Below are positions 10,080 through 45,532 of a stretch of 64,000 bases of DNA, piece after piece. Source of the DNA: Candidatus Velthaea sp. (GTDB lineage: Bacteria; Vulcanimicrobiota; Vulcanimicrobiia; Vulcanimicrobiales; Vulcanimicrobiaceae); contig JBEKHC010000002.1 in NCBI GenBank assembly GCA_050012475.1, positions 1-64,000 of the forward strand. The letters run 5' to 3'. A program made the position numbers and the translations under genes. The notes below the pieces were generated by a model, which saw nothing but the letters and a program-made list of their open reading frames with translations, made no database searches and was not told the DNA's origin. Position 1 is the stretch's first letter, and each line of letters begins with the position of its first letter.

Positions 10080-10094
10080 TTTAGGCCCCAATTC

Positions 10095-10670: not shown

Positions 10671-10673
10671 CGG

Positions 10674-11315: not shown

Positions 11316-11325
11316 GTCGGGTTCC

Positions 11326-12378
11326 TTAAACGGTTGCGGGCGTGAGAACGGTTTCGGCGGCGGCGGCGACCGCGCGTGCCGCGTCGGATGCCCGCTCGGA
11401 ATTTTCGAGCTCCTCGGGTCCGAACAGCTCCGAAACGGAGCGGTTCGAGGTGATTCGCTTGATCGCGTCGGCCAAAATCTGCGCGATCGACTGCTGTTCG
11501 ATCTTGCCGCCGTCGCCGTCGAGCGAGACGTTGCGCGGGATGGTATCGGTCACGATCACCTGTCGAATCGGCGAGTTCGCGAACTGTTTGATCGCGTCTC
11601 CGGCGAAGATGCCGTGCGTCGCCAGGGTGTAGACGTCGGTCGCACCCTCGTTGATGAGCGCTTCCGCGGCTTTGACGAGGGTGCCGCCGGTCGAAATCAT
11701 GTCGTCGACCACGACGGCGACTTTGCCTTGAACGTCGCCGACGATGCCGGTCACTTCCGAGACATCCGGCTGCGGACGACGCTTGATGATGACGGCGAGC
11801 GACGATTTGAGCCGCTTGGCAAAGGTCTCGGCGCGGGGGACGCCGCCCGCGTCGGGCGAGACCACAACGACGTTGTTGCCTTGCAGGCCCTGATTTTTTA
11901 GATAGTTGCACAGCGTCGGAGCAGCCGTCAGATTGTCGACGGGGATGTTGAAGAAGCCTTGGATCTGCGCGGCGTGGAGGTCGAGCGTGACCAGCCGCTC
12001 GGCGCCCGCGGTCTCGAGCATGTTCGCTACGAGCTTGGCCGAGATCGGTTCGCGGCCTTTGGTCTTCTTGTCTTGTTTGGCGTAGCCGTAGTAGGGGACG
12101 ACGGCGGTGATGCGATTGGCCGAGGCGCGCCGCAGCGCATCGATCATCAGCAGCAGCTCCATCAACGAATCGTTGACGGAACCGGCGGGGGAATTGCAAA
12201 TCGACTGGAGGACGAAAACTTCCGCGCCGCGGACGTTCTCGCGGATCTCGATGCGGCACTCATTATTCTTGAACCGGTCCACGAGCGCGTTGCCGACGCG
12301 TGTCTGCATCCGTTTCGCGATCTTTTCCGCTAGTTCGCGATTCGACGTTCCACTGAATATGAGTGGCGGCTGGATCAC
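11326..12378 (-). CDS. prs: Ribose-phosphate pyrophosphokinase
   Basis: PYYGYAKQD, DLHAAQIQGFF, VSPDAGG, VDDMISTGGT. Confidence 0.96.
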   Translation of the reverse strand: MIQPPLIFSGTSNRELAEKIAKRMQTRVGNALVDRFKNNECRIEIRENVRGAEVFVLQSICNSPAGSVNDSLMELLLMIDALRRASANRITAVVPYYGYAKQDKKTKGREPISAKLVANMLETAGAERLVTLDLHAAQIQGFFNIPVDNLTAAPTLCNYLKNQGLQGNNVVVVSPDAGGVPRAETFAKRLKSSLAVIIKRRPQPDVSEVTGIVGDVQGKVAVVVDDMISTGGTLVKAAEALINEGATDVYTLATHGIFAGDAIKQFANSPIRQVIVTDTIPRNVSLDGDGGKIEQQSIAQILADAIKRITSNRSVSELFGPEELENSERASDAARAVAAAAETVLTPATV

Positions 12379-12593
12379 GGAAATCGAACTCCTCCCGCTT
12401 CCGATGGCACGCCTGGGCGCGGCAACGGGGAGCGCAACAGTATGCGAGATTTCTCTTAGAATAGCCTGTCCCCGAGGCGCAACGCCGGGAGCTTTCCCCC
12501 GGTCTTACCACTACAAGGGCATCGGGCGAGCGGCAAAGCCGCCGCGGCCTGCGTCCGCCGCGAGCGGAGCAATTCGACGTCGGGAGCCGATCG

Positions 12594-30200: not shown

Positions 30201-30318
30201 CGAACGCGCGCACGGCCATATCGCCGCGAACGCGGCACGCATGGAAGCGATCGAAGCAGCGAATCTGGCCTCACTTCACGGACTCGTCACGAGCGACCGG
30301 GTGAAGATCGAGGCCTAG
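27277..30318 (+). CDS. uvrA: Excinuclease ABC subunit A
   Basis: GAREHNLKN, two Walker A motifs ([16 protein letters not shown]), LSGGE signatures, Zn fingers. Confidence 0.97.
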
Positions 30319-30552
30319 GCGATCCGCCTATGCGCCGAGAGCGAAACCGGCTCGACACGGTAAGTCATCCGGTGGACACGACAAGGAAACGACGGCGCCC
30401 GGCTGATCTCCTCGCCGAGGGCGAGCATTGTATGCGCCGCCCCCGTTCCATTCGTGTGCAAGACTTGGAGGAATGCGCTTCGCGCATTCCGTCGCGTTTG
30501 GGCGAACTTGAGTAGTGAGCGGAGGGATCGCCGACTGCCCCCACATCGGTTG

Positions 30553-31779
30553 TTAGCCCCAGCGTGGCTGCTCATCCAGACTGATACCGAGCACGGTCTT
30601 ACCCACCACTTCGTGCGTTAGGAAAGCATTGGCGGGATGAATTCTGCCCAGGCGAGCATCGCGCAGCAGACGCTCGTATCCGGCCGAGCGAAAGATGCCA
30701 TGGCCGCCGGCAACATCGAGTCCAAGATCCACAACGCGCCACGCCGCCTCGACGGCCCGATATTTGGCCGCGAAGATCTTCAGCGGCCATTCGGCGCCGT
30801 GATTGACGCCGTTCGACCAGTCCTGGGCAATCCGTTCGACATGCGGCCCGATCGATTCCAATTCGATCTTCATTTGTGCGATGGCATGCTGCACCTCGGG
30901 ATGGTAAGCCATCGACCGCGAGAGGGCCAGAGAGTTCTTGCTCTTAGCGGCGCTAACACTCTTATTCAAAGCGCGTTCGGCTAATCCGTAATAGACATTG
31001 GCGAAGCCCATCAGCGCCCAGGCAAAGACGGAGAGCACAAACGCATCGATTCCTGCACCACCAGCCGGCACAACGCGAGCGACGAACCGGTCGGGAATAA
31101 ACGCGTTCTCCAAGACCGCGTCGTCGCTGCGCGTAGCTCGCATACCGAGAACATCCCAGGTTTCTTCGATGATGTAGCCGCCGCCGTCGCGCGGAATAAA
31201 CGCGTGGACGATCTTTGGCTGGTCCGGGCTACTTGTGTCCATTGCGTGTACGCCGAAACGCGTCCACACCGGCGTTAGGCTGGCAAACTGTTTGCGGCCT
31301 GAGAATCGGTAGCCGCCTTCGACCCGTTCCGCTTTCGCTGTCGAAAGCAGGACGGGGATGTCGTTGCCGCTCTCGGCGTGACCGGCCGCGAAAATTTCGC
31401 CGGCCGCGGCATCCCGAAGCATCCATTCGAGCGACGCATCTCCCCGATGCCACAGGTCGGCGGCAACTCCGACCCAGTAGAGATGCATATTCACCGCCAA
31501 GGCAGTCGCCGGTGCATAGTATGCGAGCCGGCGCTGCTCGCGACACACTTCGGCGAGGCTCAAGCCAGCGCCGCCAAATTGCTCCGGAACCGGCATAGTG
31601 AGATATTTCGCAGCGCGGAGCTCTTCGAAATCCCGATCGAAGAAGCGATTTTCCCGGTCATAGCCGGCGGCGCGGGCATCGAAACGGGCGAGCATCTCCT
31701 CGGAGAGACCGACACGTGCGGATACCGCGGCGGAGTTCGTGCGTTCGCCCGGAAAAGTCGCTTCGTCAACTGCCGACAT
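30553..31779 (-). CDS. Acyl-CoA dehydrogenase family protein
   Basis: PEQFGGAG, GRKQFAS, WDVLGMRATRS, ERLLRDAR. Confidence 0.9.
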   Translation of the reverse strand: MSAVDEATFPGERTNSAAVSARVGLSEEMLARFDARAAGYDRENRFFDRDFEELRAAKYLTMPVPEQFGGAGLSLAEVCREQRRLAYYAPATALAVNMHLYWVGVAADLWHRGDASLEWMLRDAAAGEIFAAGHAESGNDIPVLLSTAKAERVEGGYRFSGRKQFASLTPVWTRFGVHAMDTSSPDQPKIVHAFIPRDGGGYIIEETWDVLGMRATRSDDAVLENAFIPDRFVARVVPAGGAGIDAFVLSVFAWALMGFANVYYGLAERALNKSVSAAKSKNSLALSRSMAYHPEVQHAIAQMKIELESIGPHVERIAQDWSNGVNHGAEWPLKIFAAKYRAVEAAWRVVDLGLDVAGGHGIFRSAGYERLLRDARLGRIHPANAFLTHEVVGKTVLGISLDEQPRWG

Positions 31780-31801
31780 GCGTTAACCCTCGATAAGATT
31801 T

Positions 31802-32887
31802 TTACGGCCGTGCTTCATATACGATGTTAAACGGTGTTTCCGTGGCTCGGCGAAAGCGAGTAAAGCCCGCCGAAGTCACGACTTCTCGGATGCGGCTTTC
31901 GCCGGCCTGCGCACCTAGACAGAGTGCGATTTCCTGCGATCTCGAGCACGGCGTACACAACAAAGTTGAGAACGAGTAGTAGACGCGCCCCACGGGATTG
32001 AGGTTGTCTTCCAACTGATCGTTTGCGAAGGGCTCGACGATCATCCAGGTGCCGTCTGTTGCAAGCGCTCGGCGAACGTGAGCGGCAACGCCCACGGGAT
32101 CGCCCATGTCGTGAAGGCAATCGAAGGCCGCTACCAAGTCGTAGTCTCTACCCGGGAAGTCTTTGGCACTCGAGACCTCAAAGTCGACCCGGTCGGCAAC
32201 TCCTTGGCGTCCGGCAGATTCTCGCGCCGCCTCGATGGATTGGTCGTGGTAGTCAAATCCGAAAAATCGCGAGTTGGGGAAAGCTCTTGCCATCAGCACC
32301 GTCGATGCGCCTTTTCCGCAGCCGATGTCGGCCACCCGGGCACCCGTTTCCAGCTTTTGTTGAACCTGGTTTAGCGAAGGTATCCACGAGCTGACAAGGT
32401 TCGCAGCGTAGCCTGGACGGAAGAACTTTTCGCAGCCGTGAAAAACGCCGGGATCGTGTTCGTGCCAGCCCATTCCGGCGCCCGTGCGGAATGATTCCGC
32501 GATGCGCGGCACGGCAGCTAAAGAACCCACCGCGAGTTCAAAAGCGCCCGGCAGATAAGCTGGGCTGTCTTCATGGGCCAACGCGAAAGCTTGCTCGTTG
32601 GTCAGGCTGAATCGTTTCGTCGTCTCATCGTAGGTGATGTAGCCGCCCGCCGCCTGCGAGGCGAGCCATTCACGCAGATAACGCTCGTCCGTTGCGGTCT
32701 CCTCGGCTAACTCCGCCGGAGTCATGGGGCCGGCCGCGAGTGCTTTGTAAAGACCGAGTTTCTCGCCGATCACCACCATCCCGGCGTGAACCGAAGCGCC
32801 AAGGTCGGTGACGAATTGTCCGATAAAGGCGTTCAGTTTGTCCATGTCCGGAACCGGCATTGGAGCCGGCGCGTGTGCTGTACTCAT
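31802..32887 (-). CDS. Class I SAM-dependent methyltransferase with N-terminal HTH (Rv2258c-like)
   Basis: ERYLREWL, DIGCGKG, FDCLHDMGDP, TPFNIVYEARP. Confidence 0.9.
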   Translation of the reverse strand: MSTAHAPAPMPVPDMDKLNAFIGQFVTDLGASVHAGMVVIGEKLGLYKALAAGPMTPAELAEETATDERYLREWLASQAAGGYITYDETTKRFSLTNEQAFALAHEDSPAYLPGAFELAVGSLAAVPRIAESFRTGAGMGWHEHDPGVFHGCEKFFRPGYAANLVSSWIPSLNQVQQKLETGARVADIGCGKGASTVLMARAFPNSRFFGFDYHDQSIEAARESAGRQGVADRVDFEVSSAKDFPGRDYDLVAAFDCLHDMGDPVGVAAHVRRALATDGTWMIVEPFANDQLEDNLNPVGRVYYSFSTLLCTPCSRSQEIALCLGAQAGESRIREVVTSAGFTRFRRATETPFNIVYEARP

Positions 32888-33073
32888 TTGAATGTCTCCC
32901 GTTGGTTGGCGATGTGGTCAATCGGGAACCCCGGTGCCGCCGTTGGAACCTCGCGGAAAATGCCGGATCTCGCGTGCTTCACATTTAGCAAGCGCAGGTC
33001 AGCGGCGTAACGAAGCATTGCCGAAGAAAGCCCGAAAGAATCCGAAAATCTATCTTGTGGGAGCACGGGGCCC

Positions 33074-35644
33074 TTGGAGACGATCGCCTCAACGTACCAC
33101 TTCGGCGAGTTCACGCTCGACGTGACGAGGGGCTGCGTTCTTCGGGCAGGAGCCGAAATCAAGGTCCGCCCCAAGGTTTATGAGACGCTCGCCTACCTGG
33201 TAAGAAACCGCGGCCGCCTGATCAGCAAGCAGGAACTGATGCAAGCAGTCTGGCCGGACAGCTTTGTTACCGACGACTCACTCGTGCAGTGCACCCTCGA
33301 ACTGCGGCGTGCTCTGGACGATCGCGACCAACAGTTACTCCGGACGGTACCGCGCCGAGGATACCTGTTCACCGCTGAGGTCACTCAGGGCGCAGCAAGA
33401 TCCGTCGCCTTACCGGAGGCTGATCTACCCGACTCAAGGGGCCGCAGAAACGGGGCTGCAAGACTTGGCGCACGGCTCGTCGATTTGCCGACCCCTCGCA
33501 CTTCGCTGATCGGCCGCGACAAAGAGGTGGAAAGTGCGGCGGAGCTGTTGCGCAATCAGAACATTCAGCTCCTAAGTCTTACCGGTCCCGGAGGCGCTGG
33601 AAAGACTCGCCTAGCGATTGCCGTAGCCGCGACGATTGCGTCGGAGTTTACCGGCGGAGTAAAATTTGTCGGGCTGGCCTCCATAACGGATCCCGAGCTG
33701 GTGGCAACGGCGCTCGCCAAATCGCTCGACATCCAACAAGTCGCCAACCGCACCGGCCCGCAACTCATCAGTGATTACTTCGAAGGTTCGGGTCCATTTC
33801 TCTTCGTGCTCGATAACTTTGAGCACGTATTAGCCGCTGCAACCCTCGTGGCCGAAACGTTAACGACCTGTCCCAGTCTCAAGGTGCTGGTCACCAGCCG
33901 AGCGTGTCTTCGAATTTATGGCGAGCAAGAATTCCCAGTGGCCCCCTTGCAGCGGGATTCAGCCGTCCAGTTGTTTGTGCAGCGCGCAACGGCAGTCCGG
34001 CCCAACTTCGCGGTGACCGACGAAAATTCGATCGCGATTGGGGAAATCTGCGCACGCCTCGATGGTTTGCCGCTAGGGATCGAGCTGGCGGCAGCCCGAA
34101 CGAAGGTCTTATCGCCGCGCGACATTCTGGAACGGCTGCGAAGCCGTTTGCAACTATTGACCGGCGGCGCGCTCGACTTACCCGAACGCCAACAGACCCT
34201 CCGCGCAACGATCGACTGGAGCCACGGGCTCTTGAACGAGGCCGAGCAGAAACTGTTCCGGCGATTTTCCGTCTTTATCGGCGGCTGCACGCTCGAGGCT
34301 GCTGAAGCTGTGTGCAACACGGCAAGTGATCTGGGAGTCGATTTGTTCGACGGCCTTGCTTCTCTGGTCGATAAGAACCTCGTTCAGCGCGTGGACCGTT
34401 CAAATTCCGAGGCGCGTTTCACAATGTTAGAAACCATTCGTGAGTACGCGCTCGAGCGGCTGGTATCGAGCGGCGAAGAGAGCCGAACGAGACGCGCGCA
34501 TGCCGCTTACTGCCTGGTCCTCGCACAGGAAGGCAATCCTGATTTGAGCCCAGCGGAACGGACCGCGTGGCTGACGCGATGCGATCTGGAGATAGACAAC
34601 TTTCGCTCCGCTCTTGACCACCTAATTCAGGATGGAGACGCTGACTGGAGTTTGCGTCTTTCTATGGCGCTCTTCCGGTTCTGGGACATGCGCGAGCACT
34701 TTACCGAAGGGCGAAGCCGCTTGGAGACCGTGCTGCGCCTGGCGGGCGAGCGTTTTTCAAAAGAACGTGCGAAGCTGGCGCTTTTTCTGGGAGCTCTCAC
34801 CACAGCGCAGGGTGATTTTCCCTCCGCGCAGCGCTTTCTCGAGCAAAGCCTTTCACTTTATGACGAGTTGAGCGATCGATGGGGCGTAGCCGTCTCCTTG
34901 AATGCACTCGCGATATCAGCGCGGGACCTAGGCGACTACTCTTCAGCGCAAGCCAACTTCGAACGCAGCTTAGCCTGTTGGCGTGCGCTATCTGATCGAT
35001 CGGCGCTCGCCCGTTGCCTTCATAACCTCGCGGACGTCACCAAAGTTTGCGGCGATTATTCGCGCGCACAATCGGAACTAACGGAAGCGGCGAGCATTTT
35101 TGAAGAACTCGGCGATCGGAGCGGAGCCGCATGGTCGAAAAATCAGCAAGGGGATCTAGCGCGCGAACAAGGCGACCTCGCTGCCGCTCTCGGCTTTTAT
35201 GGACGTGCGCTTTCGGCATTTCGGGAAATTGGGGATCGCTGGGGCTCCGCCCGGTCTCTCGCCGATTTAGGTCACATCCACTGCGAGCAGAACGAGTACG
35301 AGGCGGCGCACGCCGCCTACAGTGAATCGCTGGAACTCTTCACGGAGTTAGGGCACAGGCGCGGCATCGCACGTGCGTTGGAGGGTTCCGCGTGTTTGGC
35401 TGCGGCTCGAGGCGATGCAGTGCGAGCGCTGAAGCTGGCGGCAGCTGCAGCGCATTTGCGATGGCTGATCGGCGCACCACTCCCGCGCGCAGAGCAGCTA
35501 CGCCTCGCTCAGAATCTATTACGCGCGTGGGAATCGCTAAGCGATGCGGACGGGAAAGAGGCGTGGGCAGCAGGGCGAGCGATGAGCATCGAGAGCGCAA
35601 TTCAACACTCACTGCACGAACCGCAGTCGACTATTACAGGTTGA
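33074..35644 (+). CDS. STAND-type regulator: winged-helix (OmpR/CadC-like) + ATPase + TPR
   Basis: VWPDSFV...TVPRRGY, GPGGAGKT, VLDNFE, LDGLPLGIELAAAR, TPR repeats. Confidence 0.9.
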   Translation: METIASTYHFGEFTLDVTRGCVLRAGAEIKVRPKVYETLAYLVRNRGRLISKQELMQAVWPDSFVTDDSLVQCTLELRRALDDRDQQLLRTVPRRGYLFTAEVTQGAARSVALPEADLPDSRGRRNGAARLGARLVDLPTPRTSLIGRDKEVESAAELLRNQNIQLLSLTGPGGAGKTRLAIAVAATIASEFTGGVKFVGLASITDPELVATALAKSLDIQQVANRTGPQLISDYFEGSGPFLFVLDNFEHVLAAATLVAETLTTCPSLKVLVTSRACLRIYGEQEFPVAPLQRDSAVQLFVQRATAVRPNFAVTDENSIAIGEICARLDGLPLGIELAAARTKVLSPRDILERLRSRLQLLTGGALDLPERQQTLRATIDWSHGLLNEAEQKLFRRFSVFIGGCTLEAAEAVCNTASDLGVDLFDGLASLVDKNLVQRVDRSNSEARFTMLETIREYALERLVSSGEESRTRRAHAAYCLVLAQEGNPDLSPAERTAWLTRCDLEIDNFRSALDHLIQDGDADWSLRLSMALFRFWDMREHFTEGRSRLETVLRLAGERFSKERAKLALFLGALTTAQGDFPSAQRFLEQSLSLYDELSDRWGVAVSLNALAISARDLGDYSSAQANFERSLACWRALSDRSALARCLHNLADVTKVCGDYSRAQSELTEAASIFEELGDRSGAAWSKNQQGDLAREQGDLAAALGFYGRALSAFREIGDRWGSARSLADLGHIHCEQNEYEAAHAAYSESLELFTELGHRRGIARALEGSACLAAARGDAVRALKLAAAAAHLRWLIGAPLPRAEQLRLAQNLLRAWESLSDADGKEAWAAGRAMSIESAIQHSLHEPQSTITG

Positions 35645-35903
35645 CGGGATCGAGGAGCCGGCGCACGGCCGACACCCGATCGGCCGGAATGCCGGTCCGG
35701 CGCGCGTGCTCCCGTACGCTATTCTCGTCGGGAGCGAGATACACGCAATAGACTTTATCTTCGGTCACGTAACTGTGCAACCACTGGATTTTCGGGCCCA
35801 TACTCTCCAGTGTCTCGAGAGAGCGCAGAGACAACTCACGGAGCTCTGCGTCCGAGATCGATCCAGCCCCCGGAATCTCACGTTCTATGATGAACTGCGG
35901 CAT
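35634..35903 (-). CDS. DUF4242 family small protein
   Basis: IEREIPG, WLHSYV, YCVYLAP, HA...G.PADRV. Confidence 0.85.
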   Translation of the reverse strand: MPQFIIEREIPGAGSISDAELRELSLRSLETLESMGPKIQWLHSYVTEDKVYCVYLAPDENSVREHARRTGIPADRVSAVRRLLDPVNL

Positions 35904-36137
35904 GATTCTGAGAAGTTAACCTCGGCTACGGCAAAAAAATGATTGCTGCGGGGTCGATTTACGACTTGGAAACCGATGTGCGGAGGCGGCAGATGCTTAT
36001 TCCTTTCGTGCAGGCCTTCCTGCCCGTTCCTCCCTTCACCATAGAACAGGCAACCGAGGATAACCGAGTTCGTTCGTTGTGTGTGCCTACGCAGCGCATC
36101 GTGCCCTGCGACCGACGTCCTCGGCCGGATATGGCTA

Positions 36138-36481
36138 TCAGCGACTGAAAAGCGAACACGGTCCGCTTCTTTTCCATCAGTCCGGCGGTTGCTGTGACGG
36201 CAGTGCGCCGATGTGTCTTCGGGATAACGACTTCCGGGTCGGTTCACACGATGTGTTGCTGGGCGTCGTCGAGGGCTGTCCCTTTTACATCGGAGGCGCG
36301 CAGTTCAAAACCTGGGAGCATACGCAGCTCATCAGATGTCATCCCCGGTTCGGGCGATAGTTTCTCGATTGAAGTCTCAGGCGGGGCCCGGTTCATCACC
36401 GAGTCGCGCGTCCTCAGTGCTCTTGAACAGGTTGCTCAAGGCTGCCGGGCCGCCACAGACCGGGCCGGCGGCCGCATCTGA
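36138..36481 (+). pseudogene. DUF779 family pseudogene (frameshifted, 5' decayed)
   Basis: HGPLLFHQSGGCCDGSAPMC...WEHTQLI continues in another frame as DVIPGSGDSFSIE...RFITESR. Confidence 0.75.
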
Positions 36482-36898
36482 GGAGCTTCGCGTGCAGCGA
36501 ACGTAACCTTCGGAGCGGTGGGTCGCCGTCGACATCCCACTGACGACTCACCGCGCTCCGTCTGCCGGCATTTTGGCTTTCGCGTTTCGCGCCCGCAGCG
36601 CAATGCGGTCGGTTAAAGACGGCCGGTCCGTGTTACGGACTCGGTCCAGCTCTGCCCCGCGTCGTTTGCGCGCCTTAACGCCTCGCAACGCGCCTCGTGA
36701 TGAGGTTCCGGAACGGCTATGCCCGGCGCGGTTAGAGCCCGAGGTCAGCCTGGATAGCGAAAGGCGCGTCCTATAGTGGCTATGGGTCGCGCCTGTTTGC
36801 TCAGAGTGTGGTGATTATTAGGTCCGTCCAGAATCGGTCACGTCACCCGTCGTTTTCGAGCACCTGCCGGACTGTATCAGAAAAGCGGACCGCGGCGG

Positions 36899-37207
36899 TT
36901 AGCGCGCTGCTACCGCTACCGGGCTCGAGCTAGAGTCTACCGCGGGCGACAAGACATCGGCGAGCTGGCTGGCAAACGCCTTTTGCTGGTCGAGCACTTG
37001 GGTCGCGAACGACGAATTGAGTTCAACAACCTGCGCGAGCGTCGGAAGGCCTTCGATCGTAGATCCGTTCGGCAGCTTCATCAACGAAGGCAAGCTGGCG
37101 GCAACTTCACGAACTGTTTGGAGCGTGGAGATCTGGACCGCTTCGATCTGTTTGACGTTGTCGAGTGTTTGAGTTTGGATTTTTTCGAGAATTTCGAGAT
37201 AGGTCAT
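36899..37207 (-). CDS. Hypothetical helical protein (phasin-like composition)
   Basis: 102-aa ORF directly after a near-consensus promoter; amphipathic helices. Confidence 0.7.
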   Translation of the reverse strand: MTYLEILEKIQTQTLDNVKQIEAVQISTLQTVREVAASLPSLMKLPNGSTIEGLPTLAQVVELNSSFATQVLDQQKAFASQLADVLSPAVDSSSSPVAVAAR

Positions 37208-37213
37208 GTGCTA

Positions 37214-37241
37214 AGTATACCAAGCAGATGCAGTTTGTCAA
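37214..37241 (-). promoter_or_regulatory. Sigma70-type promoter, leaderless transcript
   Basis: TTGACA-N16-TATACT-N6-ATG(37207). Confidence 0.75.
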
Positions 37242-37364
37242 GCGGCTTTGGTCGAAGGCGCGTCGCAGTGCGTCCAAGTGGGGATAACTCAACATTCGTT
37301 GCGCCCGCTGGGCCTTTCGCGATATGTCTTCCCACGGATGATCTATCGGCAGATCTGACACGCG

Positions 37365-37715
37365 TTGATCGGTGCTGGGAGACGCGTGCGCTTCACTCGC
37401 TGCAGCGACTTGGTGCAACGCCTTCAGGCTGCCCGGCGCGATCTGCGGCTGCCGCAAAGACTTGCCAAGCTCGATCGCTTCGATTTGATCATCCTGGACG
37501 ATCTGTCGTACGTGCGCCGCGATCAGGCCGAAACGGCGGTGCTCTTCGAGCTGATTTCCAAACGCCACGAGCGCAAGAGCATCGCGATTATGCCAATGCG
37601 CCCTTCTCGCAGTGGAGTGATGTCTTCGTCGATCCGGCGCCGACCTTGGCGGCAATCGATCGGCTCGTTCACCATGCGGCGATCCTCGAGATGAATGTGG
37701 AACGCTGTCGCCAGC
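37365..37715 (+). mobile_element. istB: IS21 helper ATPase (IstB) remnant, truncated and frameshifted
   Basis: LIILDDLSYV..DQAETAVLFELI, then a frameshift, then ANAPFSQW...AAIDRLVHHAAILEMNVE. Confidence 0.85.
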
Positions 37716-37765
37716 TAAAAACAGGACCACAGGTCTTCGAGTGCGATGGCTCACCCCAGCACGAG

Positions 37766-38110
37766 CTACGTGAGCGGCGAAAGGTGCTTTGGTTCGTAAA
37801 GGCCGAGCTTGTCGCCGCCAGGGAGTTCGAGCGTCGTCACCAAACCCCAGCCGCGGTCGGCGAGCGGTGTCGTTTTGATTCCCTTCTTCTCGAGCTGTTG
37901 TACCGTCGCGGCGATGTCGCCGCAGATCAGCCACAGTTCGTGTTCGGGGTCGTCTTCGGTCTCATGGACGGCGAGTTCGGTCGGCGGTGCGGCGAAGAAG
38001 AGCCGCCCGTTGCCGGCGTCGACGTAGTGCAGGTCGAGCACGTCCTTGAGAAAGTCATACATCTCCTTGGCGTGCTTTGTGTAGAAGATCGCGTGGATAC
38101 CGGTGATCAC
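37766..38110 (-). CDS. VOC/glyoxalase family protein
   Basis: ITGIHAIFY, PPTELAVH, DRGWG, LPGG..LGLYEPKH. Confidence 0.85.
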   Translation of the reverse strand: MITGIHAIFYTKHAKEMYDFLKDVLDLHYVDAGNGRLFFAAPPTELAVHETEDDPEHELWLICGDIAATVQQLEKKGIKTTPLADRGWGLVTTLELPGGDKLGLYEPKHLSPLT

Positions 38111-38138
38111 TCTGTTCCTCTTCCCTCGAACTACGCGC

Positions 38139-38200
38139 CTTCGCTGCGCTCCGCTCGGATGACATTACAACGGCGCTTCGCGCGCTCCGCTCGGGATGAC
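38139..38200 (+). repeat. Two tandem REP-like units
   Basis: CTTCGCTGCGCTCCGCTCGGATGAC and CTTCGCGCGCTCCGCTCGGGATGAC. Confidence 0.6.
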
Positions 38201-38413
38201 CATAGCGTAATTGAAAAACGCGCGGCGCCGCTGTGGACAGCGTGGCTGAGCTCCGCAAGCAGCAGTTAGCAACGAGCAAGGGGCTCATCCCCACCCTGCC
38301 CACAGCACCACTACTGCTGCTGCTTCTTCAAAGAAAGGACGAGGAACGGGACGGGCACTACCGCCTCATCTGAAAACCGCGACCTATACTGCTACCTGCT
38401 TCGCAGCGGCAAA

Positions 38414-38454
38414 GATAATTGACGCCGAGCGGTCGGGATAATTGTCGCCGAGCA
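38414..38454 (+). mobile_element. Probable IS21-type right end
   Basis: 17-nt direct repeats GATAATTGACGCCGAGC / GATAATTGTCGCCGAGC ending in CA, downstream of the istB remnant. Confidence 0.55.
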
Positions 38455-38748
38455 CGTTTCGCACCGCCAACGATTCGCCGGTGTCGAGATCGACTACATC
38501 AATCGCGCCAAAGTGGCGGCCAAGATGTTACGTTTCGGGTCGGCGGCGAATCGACCGGGATACTCGTCGCCGACCGCGGCACCTTCGCGCCTTGCGTCCT
38601 AATCCGGCGCGAGTTCCCGACCGTCACCGACGCTTAGCCAATATCGCATTGAAAGCACTGGGAAGTGCAGGCCCCCTCCTAGCCAGGGACGCTCCGATGG
38701 AGCCCTGGACGTCGCCGCGATGCTCTAGCCAGCACGAAATCAGGCATA

Positions 38749-39030: not shown

Positions 39031-39237
39031 TACAGCTGTTGTTCTCCGGGGCGGATGTCAAGGTCGAACCGATAGCCGGGTAAGCGTCGCTGCGGCGCGT
39101 TCGGACACGAGCGCCGGTTGGGACGCTTTTCGGACGGCCGATCCGTACCATCGCAAAGGTGAGCTCGTTCCGAGCGATCGGGAGACCACTGCTGCTTCGA
39201 GCATTTCGAAGGACCCCTTTCGAGTGGAGTTTCAATT

Positions 39238-39519
39238 GTGAAGCGAACAACACTGGTATCGCTTGCGGCAACCTTACCCATTGCCGCGCTTGCGATCGGC
39301 AATGCCGTGGCGCAACCTCCGACGGCGGCGGCGACCGCTTTTGGCGCCTCGGTCCCCGCGAAGGTGAGTTATATTCCCCCAGTCATTGGGCCCGTTCGCG
39401 ACTACGTGATCATCATCATCACGACGGCGTGGGGCCGCGTGGTGGGCGATATCCCGTACGCATCGACGGGCATCAAAGCCGCGAGCCCGAGCGACGCGGC
39501 AAAATCCCTGGACGGTTGA
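39238..39519 (+). CDS. Secreted 93-aa peptide, putative SdpC-like precursor
   Basis: GGAG SD; Sec signal peptide ending AVA; hydrophobic core YVIIIITTAWGRVVG; first gene of the cluster. Confidence 0.7.
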   Translation: MKRTTLVSLAATLPIAALAIGNAVAQPPTAAATAFGASVPAKVSYIPPVIGPVRDYVIIIITTAWGRVVGDIPYASTGIKAASPSDAAKSLDG

Positions 39520-39524
39520 GCAGC

Positions 39525-39555
39525 AGGCGTGAAGTCCGCGTACGGCTTCACGCCT
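39525..39555 (+). terminator. Stem-loop after the peptide gene (stabiliser/attenuator; no U-tract)
   Basis: AGGCGTGAAG / CTTCACGCCT 10-bp stem. Confidence 0.6.
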
Positions 39556-39618
39556 CGCCGCTGCGCCGGCGCACGTCATGAATGCCTTGATGCCGTCTGA
39601 ACGGCGAGGACTTTTCGC

Positions 39619-40272
39619 ATGGACAACACCGACGTTGCTTCGCCTCGAGAGCGCCTGGCGCTCGCGGCTTTCGCGCTCGTTCTCGCCGCCGTCCTCGCCG
39701 TTCACGCGGGGTTCGAGACCCTCTTCGTTCTGCCGTCGAACCCGATCGGCGAACGGCTGCGGCCGCTGGTACTCGCGTACACGCACCCGTACTTCGAGCA
39801 GTATTGGAACATGTTTGCGCCGGCGCCCATCGCGAGCGACATCATCGTGCTCGCGCGGACGCGAGACGCGGCGGGTGCCCAGAGCGCGTGGGTCAGTCTG
39901 ACCGATCCGCTCATCGACAAGGTGCGCGCAAATCCGCTCTCACGCTACTCGACGCTGAAGAACGTCGCCATGACGCTGGGCCTCGCCGCCCTGGCCGACA
40001 AGACGCTCATCAAGGGGAAACTCACCCGCGCTCAGCTTCGGACGCTCATGGAACCCAAGACGCGGCCGATGTTTTTCGACGGCCTGCTGCGCCTCGCGGT
40101 CTTTCTGCGGGCCGGCGAAGGCACCGACGTCCGCAGCATGCAGATCCAAATCATCGATCACGAGTTTCCGCGCTTTAGCCATCGATTCGAGCGCGACGAC
40201 GTTCGCTTGAACAACCACGCGATGATCCTGCCCTGGGTACCGGTTTCTGGAACGGACGGAAGCACATCATGA
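39619..40272 (+). CDS. DUF5819 / SdpA-like protein
   Basis: One N-terminal TM; P.NP..., YTHPYFEQYWNMFAPAP motif; precedes an HTTM gene with ATGA overlap. Confidence 0.8.
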   Translation: MDNTDVASPRERLALAAFALVLAAVLAVHAGFETLFVLPSNPIGERLRPLVLAYTHPYFEQYWNMFAPAPIASDIIVLARTRDAAGAQSAWVSLTDPLIDKVRANPLSRYSTLKNVAMTLGLAALADKTLIKGKLTRAQLRTLMEPKTRPMFFDGLLRLAVFLRAGEGTDVRSMQIQIIDHEFPRFSHRFERDDVRLNNHAMILPWVPVSGTDGSTS

Positions 40273-41300
40273 GACCAGGCGTTATCGCGGCGCAGGTCGT
40301 GCCGCTCGTGGATCGCGTCTTCGCGCGCCTCACGATCCCGCATCGGCAGATCGGTGCCAGCGTGTTCCGGCTCGTGTTGGGCAGCACGATCGCACTGCTC
40401 TATTTGCAAAACCTCGGTTGGCGGCGGTTTCTCTGGGGTCCGCACGGGTTGATCCCGTTCACGCACGCCGCGCAAATCGTCGCGGCATACGGGCCCAATC
40501 TGTACTTGGCGTCGCCGTCAGCGTGGTTCTTCGAGGCCGTGTTCTGGACGGGACTGGTGGCATCGATTGCGTTCGCTTGCGGGCGCTGGATCCCGGTCTC
40601 GACGCTGCTGTGCGCCGTGCTGACCTGGTGCCTCATTTACCGCGATGGTTTTCTAGGTGACGCTGGTTGGAATTTGGCGACCATCCTGCTCGTGTATGCG
40701 CTCGTGCTCGATTGCGGGCGCTATCTCGTCGCCGGAAAGTCCGGCGCTGCGCTGGTGCCGAGCGCCCGGCCGAATTTCCACTCGCGCGCCGCCGCGCTGC
40801 TGCACAACTTCGGCATCACGCTGGCGATCTGGCAAGTGAGCCTGCTCTACGGTACCTCGTGCTTTTACAAGATTACCGGGCACAAGTGGCAAGACGGAAC
40901 GGCGCTCTACTACATTCTGCGCAGCAATCAGTTCAATCTGTCTCCGCTGGGGCCGCATATCTACCACAGTGCCGCGCTGGTGTGCATTGCAACGTATGCG
41001 ACGCTGCTGCTGCAGGCGGCATTCCCATTCTGCATTTGGCAGCGCCCGGCCAAGTACGTCGTCGCCCTGGGGGCGATCGGCTTCCACGTCGGCATCGCCG
41101 TTACGATGGGGCTGCCGTTTTTCTCCCTCGTCATGATTTCGTGCGAAGCGCTCGTCTTTTCGGATGCGGAATATCGCCTGGCGGTCGGCGCGTTGCGCGC
41201 AGTCGGGCAGCGGTGTGACGCCGTTCGCGGTCGACTGTCGTTTGCCGGCGCACGGGCGGCGGCTGCCGCGGCCCTGCCGTCGGTACAGGATGGACGGTGA
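40269..41300 (+). CDS. HTTM-domain membrane protein (SdpB-like; vitamin K-dependent carboxylase-related fold)
   Basis: WGPHG, DAGWNL, LLHN, QVSLLY...KITGHKWQDGTALYY, FHVGIAVTMGLPFFS. Confidence 0.85.
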   Translation: MRPGVIAAQVVPLVDRVFARLTIPHRQIGASVFRLVLGSTIALLYLQNLGWRRFLWGPHGLIPFTHAAQIVAAYGPNLYLASPSAWFFEAVFWTGLVASIAFACGRWIPVSTLLCAVLTWCLIYRDGFLGDAGWNLATILLVYALVLDCGRYLVAGKSGAALVPSARPNFHSRAAALLHNFGITLAIWQVSLLYGTSCFYKITGHKWQDGTALYYILRSNQFNLSPLGPHIYHSAALVCIATYATLLLQAAFPFCIWQRPAKYVVALGAIGFHVGIAVTMGLPFFSLVMISCEALVFSDAEYRLAVGALRAVGQRCDAVRGRLSFAGARAAAAAALPSVQDGR

Positions 41301-44300
41301 TGCCGGCCGATGCGTTGCGGCGGCGAATAAGCGCGGCGGCTTTGGCGGCCGGGCTGCTGACGATCCTCATCGCGGGCATGACGATCGCGCCGGTGCGCGC
41401 TGAGAGCGGCGCCCAGCTGACCGTTCGCGTGATCGATCAGACATCGAAGCGGGGCCTTGCGCTGGCCCGCGTGATCCTCACGGGGCCCGTGCAGCGGCTC
41501 GGTTTCACCGATGACAACGGGTCGATCGCTTTTACCGATTTGCGCTCGGGCGTGTATCGGCTCGTTGCCGCCGCTGCCGGCTACCAATCCCAGACGTCGA
41601 GCATCACCGTCGCGCCGGATGCCGCTGTTAGCGCGGTCGCCGGACTCGCTGCGGCGGGCGCGCTCAAGACGATCGGCCGAGTCAGCGTACGTGAGAAGCG
41701 AAGCCTCGAAGTCGCCGACTTTGGTTCCGACGGCGCGATTCGGCGCACGCACGACTCGCTCGACGATGCGCTGCGGTTCGACCCGGCAGCGAGCGTCGGA
41801 CCGAACGGCGCGCTCGCGATCGCCGGCCAGCCAACGACCTCGGCCGGCGTGACGCTCGACGGGATACCGCTGGCGCAATCCGGTCTCGACCTGCGGCGGC
41901 TGGGCGCAGACCTCTTTTCTTCGCTGAGCGTGACACCGGGACCGGCAAACGGTGCGATCGCGGGCAACGTCGACTTGCGTCCGTTCGATCCGACGCTGCT
42001 GTTCCGCTCGGCGCTCACCACGCAATACGCAAGCGACGGCAGCAATCGATTCGCGACCGTTCTGAGCGGGACCAGCGGCAACGTCGGATACGCGCTCAGC
42101 GCGGCCCGTTCGCTGACGAGCGGACCACTCGACGGTCAGCGTTTTTTCGATGCCAGCGGCAGCGATTTCGTTCACGCGGATCGGACCTGGTCCGACGGCA
42201 TGCTGGCCAAGCTGCGGCTCGGGCTCACACCGTCTTCGAACCTCATGTTCACCGCGCTGCACACGACGACGCGGGCCACCGAAAGCTGCGCGCTCTTGAA
42301 TGACACGCTGCCATGCACGTACGGACCGGGCGCATCGCAGACCAGCAGCTTGGATGTTGCCGGCCTGACGTTCACGGGAGTCTACGGCAAGCTTTCGCTG
42401 ACGGCGACGCCCTACGTGAATCGCCGGCGCGAAGATCTCGCGTACCCGAACCAGATCGAGGCTGGTCTTGCGGCGCCGCAGAGCGGCTCGGTTGAAGCGT
42501 CGGCGGCCGGTGCCCGCTTTGCCGCCGACTTGGTCGGATCGAATGCCGTCGACTATCATCTCAGCGGGCTCGTCTCGCGATCGTCGCTGGTTTCGCAAGC
42601 CGTCGCGGTCGACTCAAATCTCGATTGGCAAGCCGATCACACCTACGACGATATCGCCGTCGGCGCCAGCGCGAAGCTGCGCCCGGGGCTGACCATCGCA
42701 CCGAATCTGCGCTTCACCCAAACCGACGCGACGCCGCACCTCGGGGCCGATGTCACCGTCCATTGGAAGCCGGCGCGCGACGATGCGGTCAATCTGGCGT
42801 ACGTGCCGCGCGCCTACGGTCTCGCAAATACGATTCCGCAGGCATTTTCTGCTCCGTCGGCGCTCGACTTCGACTGCGCCGACCACACGGCGATCGCACA
42901 CGCGGCGGGCGTATCGGCGGACGAGCCCGCGACGAGCGTGCTGCGCGTCAACTGGACGCACGAGCACCGGGCGACGAAAACGGTCGTTTCGGCCTTTCGC
43001 ACCAAACAAGTCAACGCGGTCGTCCCGACCTTCGTGAACCTCACGGGGCTCGCGACGAACCTCATTCCAGCCGGTTTTCTGGGCGCAGCGAACGCTGCGT
43101 TCACGTCGCCGTTCGCTTGTCCGGGCGCACCGCCGCTCTCCGCGTCCGACATTGCGGTGGCCGAGCCGGCAGTGCTCCCGGCGCAGACCACGCTGGGCGC
43201 TTCGATCGGCGAAGCCTTTCAACTCAATTCGTCGCTCGTCGTGATCCCAAGCTACAGCGCGACATACGCGCGCGCCGATCAAGTCGGCCCGCAATTCGCT
43301 GTGCCGCGGTCGGTGGTGACGGCCGGGCAGCAATTGCCCGGCGTGCCGATGCATCAGTGGTCGCTGCTCGCCGACTACAAGCGTCCCGGAAGCCGCCTGG
43401 AAGCCATTGCGTCGGTGACGCACACCGCGGCCAACAACGCGTATTTTCTCCCCGCCTACACGCTGATCGGAGCCGGCCTGAGCCTGCCGCTCGGCGCGGC
43501 CGATCTCCTGATCAGCGGTACGAATCTCACCAACGCGTTCGGCGGCGCATTTGCTTCGCCGGCGCTGGGTGTGCCGCTGGCCGTCAATCGCGGTGCGCCG
43601 CTGGCGGTGCCGGGATATCCGCTGCCGGGCCGGCGGATTGCGGTGGCCGTCCGTTTCGCCGTTGGAAGTTCCGCGCTGCGCGCCGGCGAGACCATCGCAC
43701 CGCTCACGACGCCGGCGGACGACGGCACGGTTCGGCGCTTCGATCTGTATTCGCTCCCCCAAACGCAGCCCAGCACGCCGGGCGTCGACGTCGACCCGGC
43801 CGCCCCGTCGTGCGTTCCCGAATCGCTTCGCGATGCACGCCGCATTTTGCATGCGATCGGCGCGTATACGGCGCGGCTCGCTGTCGCGGACCGGCGTGCC
43901 GCCGGGCCGTTCCCGCACATCGACGGCGTGACGATGACGCGTCACGATCTCGGCGATAGTTACGAACTGCGCTTCACCATGGACCCCCGCGCCACGCTGG
44001 CAGTGGCGCGCTGCGGCGCATTCACGTACGCCAACCGCGACCAAGCAACGCAAGTGGGATTGGAAGACCGTTTCGATCTCGCAAGTTGGCAACTCGATTT
44101 TCGCTACGCCCGGCAATTCGGATTGTTTCTCGTCGAGCGGCCCGAGAGCGTCGTTGCCCACGCGGTCCGCTCGGCGCTGCCCGCCGCGCCGCCGTCCGAT
44201 CCGTTCGCGACCGTCACCGGGGCGCAATGCCGGCCGGACCAAACGCCGGTCGCACGTGCGCTGCTGACGCGGCTGCGCGCCGGAATCGAGAGCACCCAAG

Positions 44301-44539
44301 CTTCCGACCCGGCTTTCACCATCGCGCGGCACGCGGCCGGCGCCGAGTCCTGGTACTCGGTGGAACTGCACGATCCACTGCTCGTGCAGCCGCTGCTGAA
44401 TTGCGCTGCGGTGGCATCGGCGTCGCGCGACGAACTGCGCCGCCGCGGCATCGACGGTGCAGCCTTGCCCGCCGTCAACTATGCGCAGCGCGTCGGCTGG
44501 TACGTCGTAGCGCATCCTACCGCAGGAGAAGGACAATGA
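41297..44539 (+). CDS. TonB-dependent receptor-like protein with N-terminal carboxypeptidase-regulatory-like domain and duplicated C-terminal extension
   Basis: Signal peptide; TDDNG...GVYRL...GY; plug-like LDGIPL, GAIAGNVDL; barrel-end-like NLTN...PGRRIAVAVRF; then about 290 extra aa. Confidence 0.7.
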   Translation: MMPADALRRRISAAALAAGLLTILIAGMTIAPVRAESGAQLTVRVIDQTSKRGLALARVILTGPVQRLGFTDDNGSIAFTDLRSGVYRLVAAAAGYQSQTSSITVAPDAAVSAVAGLAAAGALKTIGRVSVREKRSLEVADFGSDGAIRRTHDSLDDALRFDPAASVGPNGALAIAGQPTTSAGVTLDGIPLAQSGLDLRRLGADLFSSLSVTPGPANGAIAGNVDLRPFDPTLLFRSALTTQYASDGSNRFATVLSGTSGNVGYALSAARSLTSGPLDGQRFFDASGSDFVHADRTWSDGMLAKLRLGLTPSSNLMFTALHTTTRATESCALLNDTLPCTYGPGASQTSSLDVAGLTFTGVYGKLSLTATPYVNRRREDLAYPNQIEAGLAAPQSGSVEASAAGARFAADLVGSNAVDYHLSGLVSRSSLVSQAVAVDSNLDWQADHTYDDIAVGASAKLRPGLTIAPNLRFTQTDATPHLGADVTVHWKPARDDAVNLAYVPRAYGLANTIPQAFSAPSALDFDCADHTAIAHAAGVSADEPATSVLRVNWTHEHRATKTVVSAFRTKQVNAVVPTFVNLTGLATNLIPAGFLGAANAAFTSPFACPGAPPLSASDIAVAEPAVLPAQTTLGASIGEAFQLNSSLVVIPSYSATYARADQVGPQFAVPRSVVTAGQQLPGVPMHQWSLLADYKRPGSRLEAIASVTHTAANNAYFLPAYTLIGAGLSLPLGAADLLISGTNLTNAFGGAFASPALGVPLAVNRGAPLAVPGYPLPGRRIAVAVRFAVGSSALRAGETIAPLTTPADDGTVRRFDLYSLPQTQPSTPGVDVDPAAPSCVPESLRDARRILHAIGAYTARLAVADRRAAGPFPHIDGVTMTRHDLGDSYELRFTMDPRATLAVARCGAFTYANRDQATQVGLEDRFDLASWQLDFRYARQFGLFLVERPESVVAHAVRSALPAAPPSDPFATVTGAQCRPDQTPVARALLTRLRAGIESTQASDPAFTIARHAAGAESWYSVELHDPLLVQPLLNCAAVASASRDELRRRGIDGAALPAVNYAQRVGWYVVAHPTAGEGQ

Positions 44540-44967
44540 CGACCGACGCGTCCGCGGTGCTGATTTTCGATGCCGACTGTGGTTTGTGCGCGCGCTTCGT
44601 TGGCGGTGATCTCGTGCGCGCCGCGCGCATTCGCGCGGCCGGCTATCAGTCGATTGCGCGCGACCCTGCCGTCGTGCGCACGTTGCACGAGCACGGCCTC
44701 GACGTCGAACGCTGCGCCACCGCGATGGTGCTCGTCGCCAACGGCCGGGTGTGGGTCGGCGCGCGTGCGTTCAACGCACTTCTCGCCCGGGCCGGCGGGT
44801 GGCGTGCGTTGGCTGCCAGGCTGCTCGGGTGCCCGCTCCTGTTTCCCTTCGAGCTGTTCGCTTACCGGATCATCGCGGCCAATCGGCGCCGGATTTCAGG
44901 TTGGATCGGCGCACCGGTTTGTCTGCGCTCATGTCACGCACCGTTCGACACCCAAGGAGAGTCATAG
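44536..44967 (+). CDS. DCC1/DUF393 thiol-disulfide oxidoreductase
   Basis: LIFDADCGLC (DxxCxxC), YRIIAANR; ATGA overlap with the previous gene. Confidence 0.85.
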   Translation: MTTDASAVLIFDADCGLCARFVGGDLVRAARIRAAGYQSIARDPAVVRTLHEHGLDVERCATAMVLVANGRVWVGARAFNALLARAGGWRALAARLLGCPLLFPFELFAYRIIAANRRRISGWIGAPVCLRSCHAPFDTQGES

Positions 44968-44968
44968 C

Positions 44969-45379
44969 ATGTTCGCAATCGCCCTATCCGTTCTACTCGC
45001 CGCGCTCGAGCCGCAGGCCGTCACCCCGCAAACCGGACCAAGCCCGTCCGCGGCGGTGTCGCCGCCGGTCGACGATCCCCAGATTGCCGCGCGGGTGAAA
45101 GCGGAGTTCGTCGCGTGGCAGCAAGGCGCCATCGATCGGTCGTTGTATTCGCCGGCGTTCGGCGACCCCACCGACATGGTCGAGGCGATGAGCGCTCAGC
45201 TCAAGGGGCTCGGCCCGCTGCTTTCCACGACGGCTCGCTCGAGTTTGCGTCGGCAGGGCAGCACCATCTACGTCTACTCGCTGCGGTGCCGGAACGGAAA
45301 CGTCAAGATGCAGCTGGGGCTCGATGCGCGTGGAAAAATATCGGCAATTTCGTTCGAGCCTGAGGCCCCGCCGGCATAG
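44969..45379 (+). CDS. Small exported hypothetical protein (136 aa)
   Basis: AAGGAG SD, signal-like N-terminus, Pro-rich linker, LG.L...YVY...GKI C-terminal domain. Confidence 0.7.
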   Translation: MFAIALSVLLAALEPQAVTPQTGPSPSAAVSPPVDDPQIAARVKAEFVAWQQGAIDRSLYSPAFGDPTDMVEAMSAQLKGLGPLLSTTARSSLRRQGSTIYVYSLRCRNGNVKMQLGLDARGKISAISFEPEAPPA

Positions 45380-45532
45380 CAGCAGGGTTCAGCGCTTCGC
45401 GACGAGCCGCGCGTGGCGTTTGCGGCTCCGCCGCGAGCCGCGGTGGCGTTCGGCGCTGCAGGCCGACCGCGCGTGGCGTTTGCGGCTTCGCCGCAAGCCG
45501 CCGCCTTCGCGTTTGGGCTTCGCCCAAGCCCC
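45380..45532 (+). repeat. REP/BIME-like hairpin array, copy 3
   Basis: CAGCAGGGTT..., then TGGCGTTTGCGGCTCCGCCGCGAGCCGCGG-type units, between convergent genes. Confidence 0.85.

Follow-up and report, generated by a model that had tools for sequence, protein, structure and literature searches.

Among the questions raised by a locus that joins a small secreted peptide to membrane enzymes and an outer-membrane barrel, the central one is whether its six genes form a single peptide system, and which of them belong to it by necessity. The genes lie on the + strand within positions 39238-45379 of the window, by which we mean the whole stretch of 64,000 nucleotides analysed here from Candidatus Velthaea sp., a bacterium of peat and soil (contig JBEKHC010000002.1, assembly GCA_050012475.1; Table 1). 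A literature search, covering mostly non-subscription sources without bioRxiv supplements, found no published combination of the operon's parts. Our overall reading, to which we assign roughly even chances, is that of an accessory operon making a modified exported peptide with a cognate outer-membrane barrel.

Table 1. Features of the locus, in window positions.
Feature	Position	Strand	Length and basis
Gene 1, secreted precursor peptide	39238..39519	+	93 aa; 17 family members; dN/dS
Stem-loop directly after peptide stop	39525..39561	+	folding z-scores
Gene 2, DUF5819 protein	39619..40272	+	217 aa; PF19136; hhalign vs SdpA family
Gene 3, HTTM/SdpB-like membrane enzyme	40269..41300	+	343 aa; TIGR04033, GGCX alignment
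Gene 4, TonB-dependent-transporter-fold protein, between HTTM and DCC	41297..44539	+	1080 aa; Pfam, fold model
Gene 5, DCC1-like thiol-disulfide oxidoreductase	44536..44967	+	143 aa; PF04134, DxxCxxC
Gene 6, small exported protein, DUF3887-like stand-alone domain	44969..45379	+	136 aa; DUF3887 lead score 0.84

The arrangement itself is real. Open reading frame coordinates and folding confirmed the six co-oriented genes, the overlaps and the stem-loop claimed in the preliminary description, with neighbours among genes 2-5 overlapping by 4 nt (ATGA/GTGA) and the start of gene 6 lying 1 nt past the gene 5 stop. The same gene order occurs on two metagenome contigs, L127 and L128 (protein identity 86-97%). 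Peat DNA contigs (run X2) bridge junctions 2/3, 3/4 and 4/5/6, so the gene order is no assembly chimera. Between the window and L128, dN/dS values for genes 1 to 6 are 0.19, 0.14, 0.20, 0.23, 0.64 and 0.21; purifying selection is clear on five genes, the DCC gene being more weakly constrained. Contigs from RNA runs cover 39179-39421, 39491-39770 and 41484-41883 at low depth, in libraries that may hold DNA, and no sigma-70 promoter consensus was found. The surrounding interval, between uvrA and a permease gene, is a hot spot for insertions.

Gene 1 encodes a Sec signal, with a cut predicted after residue 25, followed by a Pro/Ala/Thr linker, a core rich in Ile and, at the C-terminus, a conserved tag that ends in Leu-Asp-x-stop. 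The mature peptide would hold four Asp, no Glu and no Cys; the tag Asp is the sole invariant acidic residue in a 9-row alignment of the family, whose conserved core (17 members) is the Ile run. Gene 1 matched no NCBIfam model, including TIGR04032 for SdpC; in this respect the SdpABC-like system proposed at the outset is not borne out, as the peptide is not SdpC-like. The hairpin behind its stop is modest (z -1.37 over 111 nt, z -2.25 over 63 nt), and hairpins of z < -1.7 and differing sequence occupy the equivalent place in 15 of 19 folded intergenic regions. It lacks a U-tract, was not flagged in a terminator search and probably serves to stabilise the mRNA of the precursor.

The two genes that follow can be related to known enzymes at a distance. 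Gene 2 matches PF19136 (DUF5819, E 1e-19) and has one N-terminal membrane helix; the SdpA models TIGR04034 and PF17418 match neither gene 2 nor anything else in the window's genome, and no solved structure related to DUF5819 was found by sequence. Gene 3 has no Pfam match and reaches the SdpB model TIGR04033 (E 7e-11) with 42.3 bits, far below the cut-off of 178.4. Profile comparisons nevertheless relate DUF5819 to an SdpA-family protein (hhalign P 76%, E 2e-5) and the HTTM protein to an SdpB-family one (P 98%), and thus sustain the earlier proposal of a secreted peptide + DUF5819 + HTTM (+ DCC) module related to SdpAB. An alignment of gene 3 also matches human GGCX (E 7e-10), and its homologues match PF05090. 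In the HMMER alignment, mapped by eye, K201, W207, H273 and F285 of gene 3 fall on K218, W223, H287 and F299 of GGCX; K201, W207 and F285, invariant in 17 rows, correspond to the general base Lys218, Trp223 and the CO2-stacking Phe299, and the Glu-binding N159/H160 are replaced by small residues (Ala/Gly-Gly). Gene 2 is a distant SdpA homologue and would supply the other half of a GGCX-like enzyme split over two proteins. A complex prediction of HTTM, DUF5819 and peptide scored 0.36 against 0.19 for a control, and is not counted as evidence.

The core of the system, namely a secreted peptide, a hairpin, DUF5819 and HTTM, often with DCC, is widespread. An upstream secreted small ORF is present at 13 of the 15 DUF5819 loci examined in the phylum (a count that leaves out L032, a near-duplicate of L031), two loci showing none, and at 4 of 7 plasmid loci read, the core occurring on Bacillus and Streptomyces plasmids. 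At three plasmid loci the upstream gene belongs to an ice-binding family instead; together with the two peptide-less loci of the phylum, this indicates that the enzyme pair is not peptide-specific everywhere. Of the 13 peptides, 8 end exactly in the [LF]D-x-stop tag and three lack it; one locus carries eight tandem ORFs ending in this tag, the layout of multi-precursor peptide clusters. Further loci also encode radical-SAM methyltransferases of RiPP type (TIGR03975, scoring above the cut-off), JmjC/2OG oxygenases or peptidases. That the peptide is the substrate of the enzyme pair is, in our judgement, highly probable. A genome-wide scan with a single DUF5819 protein found only two loci.

The TonB-receptor-like protein of the preliminary description proved to be a true TonB-type barrel. 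Gene 4 comprises a signal peptide, a CarboxypepD_reg N-domain (E 8e-10), a plug, a 22-strand barrel (plug and barrel profile matches being weak) and, after the last strand, two tandem alpha/beta domains that carry conserved Cys and form an internal repeat (E 1e-5). The fold model (54-row alignment, 22 strands counted) reached pLDDT 84 and pTM 0.75, against pLDDT 32 without an alignment, and superimposes on BtuB with Z 32.2 and rmsd 2.8 over 495 aligned residues, the lists of matches being filled by the barrel part. By barrel topology, the C-terminal pair would be periplasmic; an Atlas search with this pair gave no usable match, a result with no bearing on absence or novelty. A conserved TonB-box-like stretch, judged by eye, precedes the plug, and the window's genome encodes members of the TonB_C and ExbB families. 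Gene 4 belongs to an undescribed, lineage-wide family of transporters that have an additional pair of C-terminal domains.

This barrel is not a fixed component. The same genome holds a paralogous cassette (C116; 57-64% identical) where HTTM overlaps DCC directly, and among 16 DUF5819 loci just two have a barrel, which makes it a late insertion; its absence from the other 14 also means that the peptide family needs no linked barrel. A conserved six-gene system is accordingly rejected, and the earlier expectation that homologous pairs would keep both partners held for the peptide and mostly failed for the barrel. The family has a distribution of its own, independent of DUF5819 (172 of 301 phylum genomes). 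As for its link to peptides, a secreted-peptide gene adjoins 17 of 32 divergent copies and 0 of 31 in the conserved group, in a non-random sample of loci from multi-copy genomes with non-independent kin and peptides called by heuristic plus eye. The family is also found at 3 of 17 HTTM-type peptide loci, including that of the only SdpA-bearing genome of 401 (chance P roughly 3e-4 to 1e-2), and one divergent barrel sits within a true SdpABC-type cluster. The Cys-rich peptides beside other barrels matched no NCBIfam family beyond weak signal-peptide hits. Gene context slightly favours the view that the barrel handles the gene 1 peptide, a claim of the preliminary description that draws independent support from the peptide-linked divergent copies and against which the barrel-less DUF5819 loci count.

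The proposed thiol oxidoreductase stands: gene 5 matches PF04134 (DCC1, E 8e-12, 46.8 bits against a cut-off of 27.8), carries its DxxCxxC motif as D12, C15 and C18, and has no signal peptide. DCC recurs in the core and is fused to HTTM at some loci. Gene 6 consists of a DUF3887-like domain, which in other proteins forms the C-terminal part of beta-lactamase-family serine hydrolases. It accompanies both cassette copies of the window's genome, was not seen at the G017 cassette, and is present in 37 of 61 related genomes, only three of which have DUF5819, so that immunity is unlikely; the possible immunity role once suggested for it was rejected for this common, exported domain. Within the overall reading, gene 6 would act as a non-catalytic periplasmic accessory.

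In the pathway we propose, Sec would export the gene 1 product, which would then be cut down to a pro-peptide of ~68 aa, and DUF5819 and HTTM would together make up a split inner-membrane enzyme resembling the vitamin-K carboxylase. The pair probably grips the C-terminal tag, and its conserved Lys, perhaps with a quinol, would take a proton from core residues. The lost Glu-binding Asn-His, the Glu-free mature peptide, the Ile-rich core and the tag favour epimerisation of the Ile/Val run, dehydration of Thr, or both, in the manner of linaridins, over gamma-carboxylation; this chemistry, rather than carboxylation or simple processing, is a tentative assignment that falls a little short of even chances. 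DCC would supply or recycle thiol reducing power, and the tag would be removed by a protease encoded elsewhere, of a kind often present at related loci and absent here. The inserted barrel would finally be the cognate channel in the outer membrane, by which the peptide leaves the cell or is taken up again and sensed.

How much of this depends on the barrel is best seen by asking whether the peptide system might be limited to genes 1-3 and 5-6, with gene 4 a passenger that imports an unrelated nutrient or signal. The insertion between two genes that overlap in the paralogue, the wide DUF5819-independent distribution of the family and the hot-spot setting all make this possible, if doubtful. Against it stand the translational coupling of the barrel gene on both sides, its dN/dS of 0.23 and a GC3 equal to that of its neighbours, the presence of a barrel from a different branch at two other HTTM-type loci, and the fact that both sisters of the window's barrel (support 0.98) face a secreted-peptide gene. 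The barrel is probably not a bystander in the operon.

TonB-dependent transporters (TBDTs) mostly import, and this would suit a quinone-dependent carboxylase acting on Asp, as MloH does, whose acidified peptide chelates metal and is re-imported as a complex through the barrel, in the manner of a metallophore. The retained K218/W223/F299 equivalents and the four Asp of the peptide are consistent with it, as is a preprint that, in its available part, models DUF5819 + HTTM-DCC1 as a split GGCX/MloH with a menaquinol pocket (bioRxiv 10.64898/2026.08.19.745780); the loss of N159/H160, the Glu-free mature peptide with the tag Asp as its one invariant acidic residue, and a conserved core that is an Ile run make it quite improbable. 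Slightly less so, yet still unlikely, is an SDP-like antibacterial toxin, in which genes 2-3 would do no more than allow a protease to free a hydrophobic, membrane-active fragment, with gene 6 conferring immunity. The homology of genes 2 and 3 to SdpA/SdpB, the SdpAB requirement of SdpC processing (PMC6818787, as far as its available part goes), the hydrophobic core and the pairing of gene 6 with both cassettes are set against a peptide unrelated to SdpC and a gene 6 product that is soluble, lineage-wide and not seen at G017. The signal peptide, the conserved motif at the stop and the hairpin behind it are also what one would expect if gene 1 were a leader acting on the downstream genes through the hairpin. 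Such CruR/SecM-like leaders stall the ribosome to monitor secretion. Gene 1 has no RAPP-type ending, the hairpin ends ~55 nt before the gene 2 start, one locus has eight tandem tag-bearing ORFs and related loci encode tailoring enzymes, which leaves this reading very improbable.

The candidate substrates of this locus are short, with a soluble linker and a conserved C-terminal tag, and the barrel-less paralogue is a natural control, so HTTM-pair chemistry (SdpAB, DUF5819/HTTM) can be tested here by co-expression and mass spectrometry. More speculatively, and with the chances rather against it, the duplicated copies of this undescribed TBDT family of Vulcanimicrobiota/Eremiobacterota (labels on close homologues) may work as plug-in gates in the outer membrane that serve diverse Sec-secreted peptides, from Cys-rich mini-proteins and SdpC-like toxins to HTTM-modified peptides, with one of them coupled here to a follower-directed, periplasm-facing epimerase or dehydratase of carboxylase fold. 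Such a combination would amount to a RiPP class of its own, whose peptides are modified once secreted and then exported or sensed by way of a TBDT.

Among known systems, SdpABC/YitPOM of Bacillus subtilis shares a Sec-secreted precursor with a hydrophobic segment and an SdpA-like + SdpB/HTTM pair, SdpAB being needed for SdpC processing (PMC6818787, available part). Here, in contrast, gene 2 is a DUF5819 protein below all SdpA models, gene 3 falls far under the SdpB cut-off, the 93-aa precursor is unrelated to SdpC, the operon has no SdpI/SdpR, and DCC and the outer-membrane barrel are extra. The DUF5819 + HTTM-DCC1 pair of Melghirimyces thermohalophilus joins the same two families plus DCC, and the available part of the preprint names no substrate peptide or transporter for it (bioRxiv 10.64898/2026.08.19.745780). 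Gene 3 conserves the pocket Lys/Trp/Phe of MloH and human GGCX, whereas the Glu-binding N159/H160 and any Glu in the mature peptide are absent (PMC12647623, available part). Linaridins (LinA, LinG/HTTM, LinL, LinE) likewise have an HTTM protein next to a ribosomal peptide that includes Thr and aliphatic residues, and contain Dhb and D-amino acids including D-Ile (10.1101/2020.07.09.196543, PMC9927463, PMC10849128, PMC10125368, available parts); our six genes, in contrast, include no alpha/beta-hydrolase LinE or LinH fusion and no LinM/LinD/LinT, the peptide family has no PxxxTP site, and the precursor carries a Sec signal at one end and a conserved tag at the other. Finally, Oar-PopC of Myxococcus xanthus is a precedent for TBDT-mediated secretion, with the same CarboxypepD_reg, plug and barrel and a cargo that would reach the periplasm first, whereas here export is a proposal, the cargo would be a small peptide and the barrel has two extra C-terminal domains (PMC6434023, available part). 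With the barrel family, the handling of secreted polypeptides by TonB-type transporters would have a second example, and the passage of periplasm-matured peptides across the outer membrane of diderms would find an explanation.

The six-gene cassette is a real feature. Its six open reading frames, the overlaps of 4 nt that chain genes 2-5, the single nucleotide between genes 5 and 6 and the DxxCxxC motif were all confirmed as the preliminary description had them, and family scans matched DUF5819, DCC1 and CarboxypepD_reg/plug domains, with gene 3 reaching SdpB below threshold. All six genes recur in unchanged order on two metagenome contigs; compared with one of these, five genes have a dN/dS of 0.14-0.23 and the DCC gene has 0.64. 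Contigs of peat DNA span three of the operon's junctions. Close homologues carry labels of Vulcanimicrobiota/Eremiobacterota, which puts the source organism in that phylum. In comparisons among relatives the operon is accessory, since a DUF5819 match is absent from three same-genus genomes and the genes on its two sides, for uvrA and an amino-acid permease, lie about 850 nt apart in G002, a related genome. The DNA between uvrA and the cassette is missing from metagenome contig L128, where the cassette comes almost directly after uvrA; the units behind gene 6 are found also behind uvrA in L128, and many unrelated contigs match them.

Coordinates of the cassette, its flanking DNA and related loci
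Locus	Position	Content
Window	39238..45379	Six-gene cassette, + strand
Window	30318-38700	About 8 kb at lower GC (0.59-0.61) between uvrA and cassette; HTH/NB-ARC-type regulators, IstB-like remnant
Window	45395-45530	Short repeated GC-rich units, REP-like, after gene 6
L005 (G000:C116)	9834-14037	Upstream of second cassette: M50/daptide-type HExxH protease, 350-aa unknown, prenyltransferase/squalene-cyclase-fold protein
L026 (G384:C21)	10529-12859	Eight tandem secreted-peptide ORFs, cores differing, C-terminal tag identical, before DUF5819/HTTM pair
L109 (G167:C4)	6668-14455	LuxR-type HTH, gene-4-family barrel, membrane protein, SdpC-like gene, two SdpA/SdpB pairs

The core of this cassette is a module of a known kind, and chemically unexplained. 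A second copy in the source genome (contig C116) comprises peptide, DUF5819, HTTM, DCC and gene 6 at 40-64% identity, with the HTTM stop overlapping the DCC start and no barrel; a LuxR-type HTH gene lies downstream. DUF5819 matches occur in 13 of 401 phylum genomes, 11 of them above the cut-off, with 16 loci above it. The expected co-occurrence of peptide, DUF5819, HTTM, TonB-type barrel and DCC held for the peptide, a small secreted ORF standing directly upstream of DUF5819 in 13 of the 15 phylum loci examined for one, but mostly failed for the barrel (2/16, two flanks being short); DCC is present in 6/16. On plasmids (57 records with an HTTM match, seven read), four combine a small secreted protein with DUF5819, HTTM and DCC, and in three, all from actinomycetes (L165, L166, L167), the upstream gene is of an ice-binding family instead of a peptide, which hints at larger secreted substrates. 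Two loci lack the upstream peptide: L031, with an NlpC/P60-like gene downstream, and L036, whose HTTM gene is frameshifted. Of 19 regions folded, 15 have a hairpin (z below -1.7) after the stop codon of the peptide gene. Gene 6, matched in 37 of 61 relatives (three flagged unpublished), resembles DUF3887 weakly and has its closest paralogue in the C116 cassette (47%). Some of its matches form the C-terminal part of PF00144 hydrolases; the protein may be what is left of the peptidase present in other loci, or an adaptor for it. Elsewhere the source genome holds 16 PF00144 matches.

All 17 close relatives of the gene-1 peptide share a Sec signal and an N-terminal (Q/H/E)PP, followed by a variable Ala/Pro/Thr/Ser linker, an Ile/Val run behind Tyr or Trp-His and, at the C-terminus, a tag finishing in Leu/Phe-Asp-x; this ending is exact in eight of 13 phylum peptides and in two from Streptomyces, and three phylum peptides have no tag. 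The window's mature peptide contains neither Cys nor Glu. At related loci the additional genes encode RiPP radical-SAM methyltransferases, JmjC/2OG oxygenases, serine hydrolases or an M50 protease. From this layout we infer a modified-peptide cluster with its recognition sequence behind the core. The locus with tandem peptides, L026, holds a second DUF5819/HTTM pair with its own peptide 5 kb upstream, and two loci of G355 (L027, L028) join peptide, DUF5819 and HTTM to a TIGR03975 RiPP radical-SAM methyltransferase, a serine hydrolase and DUF5825 (scanned in L027).

AlphaFold, given a 54-row alignment, returned a confident gene-4 model in which an N-terminal beta-sandwich precedes a plug, 22 strands and two alpha/beta domains that repeat each other (E 1e-5 for the internal repeat), and whose best structural matches are classical TBDTs. 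Matches to its last 282 residues occur in 172 of 301 phylum genomes, six of them flagged unpublished, all but one in three families; the profile search gave at least 150 matches, mostly full-length among those listed. We examined another 62 loci, drawn from the best matches and from multi-copy genomes, and built a FastTree phylogeny of 61 sequences with a midpoint root, three frameshifted or short loci being placed by context. A conserved group of 31 loci emerged; in 23 of them a response regulator and a histidine kinase, recognised by eye, immediately precede the barrel gene. Most genomes have this copy (L068-L086, L008) right after an OmpR-type regulator and a histidine kinase; that of the source genome lies on contig C50.

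A secreted-peptide gene lies within about 3 kb of, or in a common HTTM-type cluster with, 17 of 32 divergent barrels, whereas no credible one adjoins any of the 31 conserved barrels, in a biased locus sample of non-independent kin, for which the Fisher value of the contrast is an overstatement. In 12 of the 17 the gene encodes a Cys-rich mini-protein, in two it faces a sister of the window's barrel (one frameshifted), and three are HTTM-type loci: the window; G211, which has DUF5819 and HTTM genes, two oxygenases and the barrel; and G167, the sole SdpA genome among 401, whose barrel stands ahead of SdpC-, SdpA- and SdpB-family genes in an SdpABC-type cluster in a diderm. The Sec-secreted Cys-rich peptides (L083, L085, L074, L093, L100, L101, L106, L108, L112, L113, L124, L125) have 50-81 aa and 4-6 Cys, and often accompany one or two uncharacterised exported proteins, once a TlpA/ResA-like thioredoxin; none of seven scanned matched a family. 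Since the barrels of G211 and G167 form a sister pair separate from the window's, the tree points to at least two recruitments into HTTM-type loci. The barrel is an optional and probably functional addition to the core. Several other divergent barrels come, by eye, after ECF sigma/anti-sigma or BlaRI-like genes, neighbours that would fit a receptor as well as an exporter. The most interesting result, which reaches beyond the region first described, is this putative family of transporters, so far undescribed, which repeatedly occurs together with secreted peptides.

As to the enzyme, homology makes DUF5819 a distant relative of SdpA and gene 3 one of SdpB. An alignment of 17 HTTM sequences hits human GGCX (E 7e-10); as read from this match, K201, W207, H273 and F285 correspond to GGCX K218, W223, H287 and F299, and the positions of N159/H160 hold Ala/Gly-Gly. 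One study assigns K218 as the GGCX general base, anchored by W223, with F299 serving CO2 and N159/H160 the Glu carboxylate (PMC12647623); a preprint models DUF5819 and HTTM-DCC1 as a split GGCX/MloH (bioRxiv 10.64898/2026.08.19.745780). Asp carboxylation or plain processing are possible activities of the pair; our guess would be chemistry at the alpha proton, because the general base is kept, Glu recognition is lost and the core is Ile-rich. The CypH/CypL membrane pair is reported to carry out the Dhb and D-amino-acid reactions of linaridins. An HTTM protein is likewise part of linaridin clusters, whose products contain Dhb and D-amino acids including D-Ile (10.1101/2020.07.09.196543, PMC9927463, PMC10849128, PMC10125368).
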